A stretch of DNA of 64,000 bases from Escherichia coli (GTDB taxonomy: Bacteria; Pseudomonadota; Gammaproteobacteria; Enterobacterales; Enterobacteriaceae). Location of the stretch: the NCBI RefSeq assembly GCF_003790525.1, contig NZ_CP033635.1; one strand, 5' to 3'. The notes under the pieces are model-generated. The model had not been told where the DNA came from, did no database searches, and saw only the letters and a list, made by a program, of their open reading frames with translations. The stretch's first letter is position 1. The number at the start of each line of letters is the position of its first letter. Shown in pieces: positions 41,427 to 42,290 of this stretch. A program made the translations under genes and the position numbers.

Positions 41427-42056
41427 ATGCAAAACAGAAAATTTTTAACGCATCATGAAATTAATTTACTACTTCAATCTGTAAGACAAAAGAGTTGCTC
41501 TTCACGCGATGTTTGCATGATTTTATTGGCTTATTTTCATGGTCTGCGTGTTAGTGAGCTCTTATCTCTGCAGTTGTCGGATTTAGAACTAACTACAGAA
41601 AAAATATATATTCAACGGATAAAAAATGGATTCAGTACAGTCCATCCACTTCAAAAGGAAGAGGTGATTGCAATAACAAACTGGCTGAATGAAAGGAATT
41701 CATTAAATGTTAAACATTTCAATGATAACCCGTGGTTATTTGTTTCCCGAACAGGAAAACCATTATCGAGACAACGATTTTATAACATAGTTTCTGCTGC
41801 GGGTAAAAATGCAGGTTTAAATATTAAAGTTCATCCACATATGTTACGCCATGCATGTGGTTATTCACTAGCAGATAATGGTGTGGATACCCGTCTTATT
41901 CAGGACTATCTCGGGCATCGTAATATCAGGCATACGGTAATTTATACTGCTTCTAATTCAATGAGATTTGAAAAAATGTGGGGGAGAGGTGACGCAAAAA
42001 AGCAACATTTTGACCCAAAATGTAAACCCAATCTTTGTTTAGAAATTCTCGTATAG
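41427..42056 (+). CDS. ipuA: FimB/FimE-family tyrosine site-specific recombinase, 209 aa, 3' end inside the candidate switch
   Basis: Paralogous to the 40109..40678 recombinase (HPHMLRHACGYSL ... HTVIYT). The symbol is assigned by analogy with the uropathogenic E. coli locus and is not verified by search. Confidence 0.6.
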   Translation: MQNRKFLTHHEINLLLQSVRQKSCSSRDVCMILLAYFHGLRVSELLSLQLSDLELTTEKIYIQRIKNGFSTVHPLQKEEVIAITNWLNERNSLNVKHFNDNPWLFVSRTGKPLSRQRFYNIVSAAGKNAGLNIKVHPHMLRHACGYSLADNGVDTRLIQDYLGHRNIRHTVIYTASNSMRFEKMWGRGDAKKQHFDPKCKPNLCLEILV

Positions 42057-42290
42057 AAAAACATTTTTTTCTATAAAAAACATTAAATTTACTGATTTAG
42101 ATCAATGTGTGACGTCAATCTACACATAAAGAGGTAGGTTTGTCTTCTTTTTAATCTTTGGCGTATAAAGCCAAAATGTAAATAATAATCAAAATTATAT
42201 TCTGAATTAAAATAAATACGCAGGTTTTTTACCTGCGTTTTGTGCTATTTATAGTTAATTAAATTGATGTTGTCAAAATGGGTCATTTTG
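42006..42290. mobile_element. Candidate invertible DNA switch (ipuS-like) bounded by 9-bp inverted repeats
   Basis: CATTTTGAC at 42006..42014 and GTCAAAATG at 42272..42280 are reverse complements; each lies within a 17-bp site with 7-bp arms and complementary 3-bp centres (cattttg-ACC-caaaatg and caaaatg-GGT-cattttg). Confidence 0.6.
42218..42242. terminator. Hairpin with flanking T-runs inside the candidate switch
   Basis: acgcagg-tttttt-acctgcgt followed by ttt; its terminator activity would depend on switch orientation. Confidence 0.45.

Follow-up and report, generated by a model that had tools for sequence, protein, structure and literature searches.

A perfect 24-bp palindrome at positions 42052 to 42075 of the window (the whole 64,000-nucleotide stretch of Escherichia coli DNA that was analyzed) probably represents the -35 element and spacer of P_ipuS, the sigma-70-type promoter of an invertible phase switch, and not a dedicated protein-binding site. 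The symmetric dyad appears to have no function of its own, and assignment of a dedicated regulator site to the palindrome was unsupported. Comparison of related switches pointed to another sequence, a candidate FNR-type box located 17 bp from the palindrome, as the conserved twofold-symmetric site of the switch and as a better candidate than the palindrome for binding a dimeric regulator. The switch system itself has been published; within it, the palindrome is a minor detail that has so far not been described.

Identification of the invertible element

The locus comprised genes for the tyrosine recombinase IpuB (40109 to 40678, minus strand), the tyrosine-type DNA invertase IpuA (209 amino acids [aa]; 41427 to 42056, plus strand), the LuxR/GerE-type regulator IpuR (206 aa; 42374 to 42994, plus strand), and the phase-variable autotransporter adhesin UpaE (2637 aa; 43019 to 50932, plus strand). 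Pfam domains detected at the locus were Phage_integrase in the recombinases and GerE in IpuR, and RefSeq annotations under the match named ipuA, UpaE, and an HTH/LuxR-type regulator in 239 of 5426 complete E. coli genomes. Two 7-bp inverted repeats were separated by 261 bp and were both identical in strain CFT073: distal TGACCCA at 42011 to 42017, inside the ipuA coding sequence, and proximal TGGGTCA at 42279 to 42285.

An element of this kind, ipuS, was described by Battaglioli et al. in 2018 (PMC6083910), and its inversion has been demonstrated experimentally (PMC6083910, PMC6458436). In that description, ipuA and ipuR are 317 bp apart, the promoter lies within the element, and the ON state shortens IpuA by 11 residues, which are dispensable (PMC6083910). 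The repeats were confirmed by Russell et al. (2019; PMC6458436), who determined orientation by means of a single, asymmetrically placed PacI site. The ipuA-ipuR spacer in the window (42057 to 42373) was 317 bp in length and a single PacI site was present at 42255, both in agreement with the published values. Inversion of 42011 to 42285 in silico produced an IpuA of 198 aa ending in HFDPF and a stop codon, which is the published 11-aa truncation with its terminal K-to-F change (Fig. 1C legend, PMC6083910). Because the repeats, the 317-bp spacer, the PacI site, and the 198-aa inverted IpuA all fit, the window contains the published ipuS element of uropathogenic E. coli (UPEC) in the OFF orientation.

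Compared to CFT073, the window was 99.0% identical over a 1.7-kb query and 98.2% identical over the switch, with five single-nucleotide differences in the switch, all between 42110 and 42251 and none within the palindrome. The window was 100% identical to strains TUM1586, 779, XH992, and HS4. The ON orientation was absent from 236 complete E. coli genomes searched with a synthetic ON query. Neither paper on ipuS mentions the palindrome, a terminator, or an FNR site, and these words do not occur in PMC6083910.

Sequence, position, and chance expectation of the palindrome

The palindrome, TATAGAAAAACATTTTTTTCTATA, consists of perfect 10-bp inverted arms (TATAGAAAAA and TTTTTCTATA) around a CATT center and sits 35 bp in from the distal end of ipuS. 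The original prediction, made from the sequence of the window, had described a perfect palindrome with 10-bp arms and a 4-bp center that overlaps the recombinase stop codon inside the switch, and this description was confirmed; the TAG stop codon of ipuA (42054 to 42056, plus strand) is within the left arm, and the whole palindrome lies between the two 7-bp repeats. The accompanying statement that inversion would alter its distance from the downstream regulator gene also held, with the palindrome moving to 42221 to 42244 on in silico inversion and the gap to the ipuR ATG changing from 298 bp to 129 bp.

The frequency of perfect palindromes with 10-bp arms and loops of up to 10 bp was estimated by dinucleotide-preserving shuffles. 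Such palindromes arose in 1.9% of shuffled versions of the 275-bp switch; for the surrounding 1.7-kb AT-rich island (31% GC), the figure was 5.2%. The complete 64-kb window contained 8 such palindromes, compared to approximately 0.68 expected from the shuffled window. A chance origin of the palindrome is moderately unlikely locally, yet the palindrome is not striking for a scan of 64 kb.

Position of the palindrome relative to the ipuS promoter

The transcription start site (TSS) mapped by 5' RACE lies inside the coding region of full-length ipuA within ipuS, and the promoter is directed at ipuR in the ON orientation only, with -35 and -10 hexamers that each match the consensus at 4 of 6 positions (PMC6083910). 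All minus-strand hexamer pairs with at least 4/6 matches each, spacers of 13 to 21 bp, and a TSS within 42018 to 42056 were therefore enumerated, and three combinations survived: TTTATA (42077 to 42072) and TATACG (42055 to 42050) with a 16-bp spacer, TAGAAA (42073 to 42068) and GAGAAT (42050 to 42045) with a 17-bp spacer, and TTTATA and GAGAAT with a 21-bp spacer. Only the first two had a spacer of 16 to 18 bp. Every surviving -35 hexamer fell on the palindrome, as did the -10 hexamer TATACG.

In the TAGAAA-17-GAGAAT combination, referred to here as P-b, the -35-like hexamer (42068 to 42073, minus strand; 4/6) and the -10-like hexamer (42045 to 42050, minus strand; 4/6) predict a TSS near 42038, inside the ipuA coding sequence. 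With this TSS the palindrome spans approximately -37 to -14 of the minus-strand promoter and contains the -35 hexamer and spacer. That the palindrome lies over the -35 element and spacer of the published promoter carried by the switch itself had been missed in the original prediction. Both P-b hexamers are weak, with 4/6 matches each, and their conservation in the Salmonella lineages described below is only loose. The bases aligned with the P-b -35 hexamer in orthologues, as read from the alignment, were TGGCAA, TGGTAA, or TTGTTT. From the text and legends of PMC6083910 and the comparison of sequences, we infer that the P-b hexamers and TSS are those used.

Conservation of the palindrome in E. 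coli and in related switches

Queries of 66 nt around the palindrome, including variant-specific queries, matched 235 E. coli genomes. The palindrome region was identical to that of the window in 203 of the 235 genomes and differed only at 42088, outside the palindrome, in 18. Ten genomes carried T42067C, which breaks one arm pair, one had T7 shortened to T6, and three were not typed, such that at least 11 genomes had altered symmetry or spacing. The distal 100 bp of the switch was nearly invariant within E. coli, and because of this near-invariance at shallow divergence, E. coli alone cannot reveal selection on symmetry.

A protein search and contig look-ups identified seven related switches, giving eight lineages with E. 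coli. The upaE-type relatives had a syntenic ipuB-ipuA-GerE-autotransporter arrangement and approximately 80% IpuA identity, and were found in Salmonella enterica subsp. diarizonae (two lineages) and one further sample. The tib-type relatives (approximately 64% identity) were found in E. whittamii, Citrobacter, and some E. coli, and their switch precedes CaiF/GrlA-like, GerE, and TibC-like genes. All related switches retained the inverted-repeat half-sites and a size of approximately 260 bp. A divergent ipuR/upaE-like locus in E. coli SC422 was also considered for comparison and set aside; it contained insertion sequence (IS) elements and unrelated upstream DNA, and because no switch is present there, it is uninformative on conservation.

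Mean pairwise identity across all eight lineages was 0.53 for the palindrome region, compared to 0.51 for the switch interior. Among the four upaE-type lineages, identity was 0.56 for the interior and 0.90 for the inner block AAAAACATTTTTTT (42057 to 42070), the sole part of the palindrome conserved in these lineages, compared to 0.43 for the left outer arm and 0.60 for the right outer arm. The inner A5-CAT-T6 block was retained only in these four lineages, and the outer arms were specific to E. coli. The original prediction offered the palindrome as a candidate dimeric-regulator or DNA-bending site and named conservation among homologous loci as one check; the palindrome region as a whole was scarcely more similar than its surroundings across lineages, its outer arms occurred in E. 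coli only, and even among E. coli strains the arms or loop were altered in at least 11 of 235 genomes, so that the functional reading failed this check.

Five of the seven orthologues, namely the upaE-type locus L089 and the four tib-type switches, had no palindrome at the equivalent spot. The two Salmonella lineages, with the same A-run/T-run core and other flanking bases, had shorter palindromes there (TAAAAA-GACAT-TTTTTA and GCAAAAA-GACAT-TTTTTGC), a weak hint that symmetry itself could be under some selection. The axis of the Salmonella palindromes is shifted by approximately 1.5 bp, and A-run/T-run cores readily form palindromes.

The overlap with the stop codon was likewise confined to E. 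coli. The stop codon was offset from the conserved FNR-type box by +38 in E. coli and by +48/49, -14, +14, and +3 in orthologues; because orthologue stop codons fall elsewhere, the overlap is E. coli specific and incidental. A general rule placing a palindrome on the stop codon was rejected by a survey of 78 other FimB/E-like loci, at whose stop codons the palindromes were mostly GC-rich, terminator-like hairpins past the stop.

A conserved FNR-type box upstream of the candidate promoter

The conserved dyad cTGAT-TTAG-ATCAA at 42092 to 42105 matched the FNR consensus TTGATnnnnATCAA (PMC3688515) at 9 of 10 positions, with its center at approximately -60.5 relative to P-b. Identity at approximately 42092 to 42106 was 0.85 to 0.87, compared to 0.51 for the interior, and was the highest in the interior except for the inverted-repeat half-sites. 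The match was 9/10 in E. coli and in Salmonella lineage L087 (TTGAC-CTGC-ATCAA) and was perfect (TTGAT-N4-ATCAA; 10/10) in the other six lineages. A box with no more than one mismatch was present in 9 of 9 ipuS-type loci, compared to 2 of 77 other FimB/E-like loci. One-mismatch boxes were found 9 times in the window, compared to 4 expected; a lone one-mismatch box is therefore not significant, and conservation is the evidence for the box.

In five of the eight lineages, spanning two cargo types (E. coli, with GAGAAT, and all four tib-type lineages), a -10-like hexamer was so placed that the center of the box would lie at -60.5 or -61.5. This recurrence of a -10-like hexamer at class I spacing favors TAGAAA-17-GAGAAT as the promoter. 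An alternative -10 hexamer, AAAAAT (42068 to 42063), was invariant in the four upaE-type lineages and would place the FNR-like box at -42.5 from a predicted TSS at approximately 42056. The -42.5 spacing corresponds to class II geometry, and the -60.5/-61.5 spacing corresponds to class I. According to Myers et al. (PMC3688515), FNR-activated promoters are mostly class II (-41.5 +/- 4), with only one class I FNR site genome-wide in K-12, and H-NS masks many predicted FNR sites; H-NS occupancy would be expected in the AT-rich island at ipuS. Among the papers searched, none connected ipuS, ipuR, or upaE with FNR, oxygen, or anaerobiosis, and none contained both upaE and FNR.

Alternative explanations for the palindrome

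Phased A/T tracts offer a possible but unlikely account in which the palindrome is architectural DNA. Here A5/T7, in phase with A6, A3T3, and AT3 tracts, would produce curved AT-rich DNA that could bind H-NS, Fis, IHF, or Lrp and thereby silence the promoter or help the 260-bp segment loop for recombination. The tract centers read from the sequence (approximately 42067, 42077.5, 42087.5, and 42097.5) are spaced approximately 10 to 10.5 bp apart in an island of 31% GC, the conserved part of the palindrome is its inner A5-CAT-T6 block, and fimS, the type 1 fimbrial phase switch, requires IHF, Lrp, and H-NS (PMC6083910). The tib-type switches, however, have the same inverted repeats and switch size but no such tracts at this spot. 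Inspection of the aligned switches by eye also revealed no convincing conserved match to the IHF consensus WATCAANNNNTTR on either strand and no conserved fit to the Lrp consensus, the spacing of which does not suit this sequence.

It is unlikely that the palindrome is an operator for a dimeric factor (autoregulatory IpuR or another helix-turn-helix dimer), by which a protein bound to the arms would gate the ON promoter at -37 to -14. A perfect dyad of 10 + 10 bp is improbable by chance locally, a location over the -35 element and spacer is typical for repressor operators, and the shorter Salmonella palindromes occupy the equivalent spot, but L089 and all four tib-type switches lack a palindrome there, and the arms or loop were altered in the 11 E. 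coli genomes noted above. The outer arms were conserved in no orthologue, although the helix-turn-helix of IpuR, including its recognition helix region, was near-invariant among orthologues whose arms differ; 10-bp arms serving as an IpuR operator are therefore disfavored. Weak half-site-like matches were clustered nearby in ipuR and upaE, but this local excess falls in AT-rich DNA, and the whole window contained 11 TATAGAAAAA half-sites with no more than one mismatch, compared to 6.3 expected, a number reached by 3 of 100 shuffles. A search for a regulon by this half-site was accordingly judged unconvincing. The two 10-mers are 14 bp apart center to center, which does not correspond to a helical repeat, and ipuR had no clear phenotype (PMC6083910).

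A role in RNA, with the palindrome folding at the ipuA stop codon into a hairpin by which ipuA mRNA would be terminated or stabilized in the OFF state, is very improbable. The plus strand does fold as a 10-bp hairpin (-6.7 kcal/mol; z = -5.4), but nine of its ten pairs are A-U and only one is G-C, the orthologues do not share the overlap with the stop codon, and IpuA can dispense with its last 11 residues (PMC6083910). No U-tract follows the stem, the next bases being AAAAAAC on the plus strand and CGAGAA on the minus strand. The palindrome was not reported by a terminator scan, and it was rejected as an intrinsic (Rho-independent) terminator on account of the A-U stem and the lack of a U-tract on either strand. 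A far stronger terminator-like hairpin was found approximately 150 bp downstream, at 42218 to 42238 (ACGCAGGT-TTTTT-ACCTGCGT). It is GC rich (-14.8 and -13.0 kcal/mol) and has a T-rich tail on either strand. This predicted bidirectional terminator-like element within the switch is likely the real end of the ipuA transcript and would halt read-through from ipuA in either orientation. Scans of two orthologues (L091 and L003) found no terminator-like site at the equivalent position.

Proposed role of the palindrome and significance

Under the preferred reading, in which the palindrome is promoter DNA, P_ipuS in the OFF orientation would run antisense to ipuA, reading the minus strand into the 3' end of that gene, and the promoter bases would happen to encode the final ipuA codons and the stop as well. 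Inversion by the Fim-type recombinases would carry the block to 42221 to 42244, 129 bp before the ipuR ATG. In the ON orientation, RNA polymerase would then use the -35 hexamer TAGAAA, inside one arm, and the -10 hexamer GAGAAT, just beyond the other arm, with transcription of ipuR-upaE predicted to start at approximately 42258. Most likely, the conserved A5-CAT-T6/7 spacer block was extended into the perfect 10-bp dyad in the E. coli lineage. Any protein on the palindrome would occupy -37 to -14 and would be expected to repress the promoter. The conserved box of FNR type farther upstream, centered at approximately -60.5, appears to be the better candidate for a site bound by a dimeric regulator.

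The palindrome itself adds little; it belongs to a published switch that controls a UPEC adhesin linked to kidney colonization. The analysis does assign the putative ipuS promoter to particular bases, identify those that are conserved across species, and uncover a conserved box with the FNR consensus inside the invertible element. If this box is functional, expression of ipuR-upaE would depend on low oxygen as well as on the ON orientation, which bears on UpaE expression in the urinary tract and on why aerobic laboratory assays gave no clear ipuR phenotype. A more elaborate scheme, and quite an unlikely one, is that ipuS integrates three inputs, with UpaE made only if orientation, low oxygen (through the FNR-type box), and a third signal agree, the palindrome serving as a lineage-specific operator or nucleoid-protein nucleation site with a veto; in this scheme, changes in the length of the spacer T7 tract could also tune promoter strength. 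The FNR-like box is the testable lead, and the palindrome alone is of low interest.

Comparison with known systems

The element in the window is the same as ipuS of UPEC CFT073 in its genes (ipuB, ipuA, ipuR, and upaE), 7-bp repeats, 260-bp size, spacer, PacI site, and IpuA truncation, and differs in being from another strain. ipuS resembles fimS in that a promoter is carried on a short invertible segment (approximately 260 to 314 bp), with FimB/FimE-family tyrosine recombinases, similar inverted-repeat half-sites, and an adjoining recombinase gene. Sites for the accessory proteins IHF, Lrp, and H-NS are known in fimS, whereas none have been mapped for ipuS. Unlike in fimS, the distal repeat of ipuS lies within the recombinase coding sequence, and hence the promoter and the ipuA 3' end overlap. 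Among class I FNR- and CRP-dependent promoters, in which the activator is centered at approximately -61.5, it is the neighboring box and not the palindrome that has a counterpart, being similar in consensus match (9/10 to 10/10) and, where measured from the -10-like hexamer of five of the eight lineages, in its predicted spacing; ipuS further resembles these promoters in the AT-rich DNA extending from the box to the -35 element and in its weak core hexamers.

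Features of ipuS-type switches and related loci

Comparison of the interiors of ipuS-type switches from eight lineages, representing two cargo types, revealed that conservation was highest at an FNR-consensus dyad, TTGAT-N4-ATCAA. This dyad lies at 42092-42105 in the window, approximately 60.5 bp upstream of the inferred ipuS transcription start site, and was also found in upaE-type orthologous switches (L087 and L091 from Salmonella, and L089) and in tib-type switches (L003, L093, L094, and L095). The ipuS papers make no mention of this dyad.

The tib-type switches form a sister family of ipuS-like elements from E. 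whittamii (L003), C. freundii (L093), E. coli (L094), and Citrobacter (L095). They share the inverted-repeat half-sites of ipuS, and the distal repeat is located within the recombinase gene, the product of which is 218 to 224 aa in length. Downstream of these switches lie CaiF/GrlA-like and GerE genes and a gene type encoding TibC-like glycosyltransferases, an arrangement which suggests that a tib/AIDA-type locus for a glycosylated autotransporter is under phase-variable control. A regulator-upaE pair without a recombinase or switch was found behind IS3/IS66 remnants in E. coli SC422 (L002; NZ_LR778143.1). This locus was 77.5% identical to the window over the matched 274 bp, a stretch reaching from the regulator gene's 3' end to where upaE begins, and contained a frameshift in upaE.

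A palindrome with 10-bp arms, TATTTTCTAT-GA-ATAGAAAATA, was found in Budvicia diplopodorum (L015, 3615-3636), where it overlaps the stop codon of a FimB/E-like recombinase of 209 aa, the distal inverted repeat likewise being in the 3' end of the gene. The half-site ATAGAAAA is common to this palindrome and the E. coli palindrome over the ipuA stop codon (42052-42075), in the opposite arrangement; the Budvicia diplopodorum palindrome was missing in B. aquatica (L034). Degenerate copies of the half-site of the 42052-42075 palindrome within ipuR, TGTTTCTATA/TATAGATAAA at 42710-42727 and AAAAAATATTTTTATA close to the gene start at 42394-42409, are probably chance matches in AT-rich DNA. A perfect GC-containing palindrome, GTGGCAGGAG..., starting 8 bp past the upaE stop codon (50940-50964), is probably the operon terminator.

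Switch orientation and transcription

The ipuS element (42011-42285) was OFF in every complete RefSeq E. coli genome carrying it (n = 236), and a synthetic ON-orientation query matched none of these genomes end to end (0/236). A promoter-like match on the plus strand, TTTACC-16-TATAGT (42228-42255), is directed at ipuR in the OFF orientation. The corresponding -10 element in CFT073 is TGTAGT (SNP at 42251), and the window allele may therefore be leakier in the OFF state. Within the invertible element, a GC-rich hairpin (42218-42238) is flanked on each strand by a T-rich tail. This candidate terminator would end ipuA read-through in either orientation, leaving ipuR reliant solely on the promoter of the switch. 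In the two orthologues scanned, from Salmonella (L091) and E. whittamii (L003), the matching position showed no terminator-like site.

The terminal change in truncated IpuA is given as K to L in the Results text and as K to F in the Fig. 1C legend of the published description (PMC6083910); in silico inversion of the window sequence produced a truncated IpuA ending in F (...HFDPF*). In the OFF orientation, the candidate switch promoter would read leftwards on the minus strand from 42038, entering ipuA at its 3' end in the antisense direction, and the ipuA 3' untranslated region differs between the two orientations. Orientation-dependent control of the recombinase through these features is possible and would be reminiscent of fimE.
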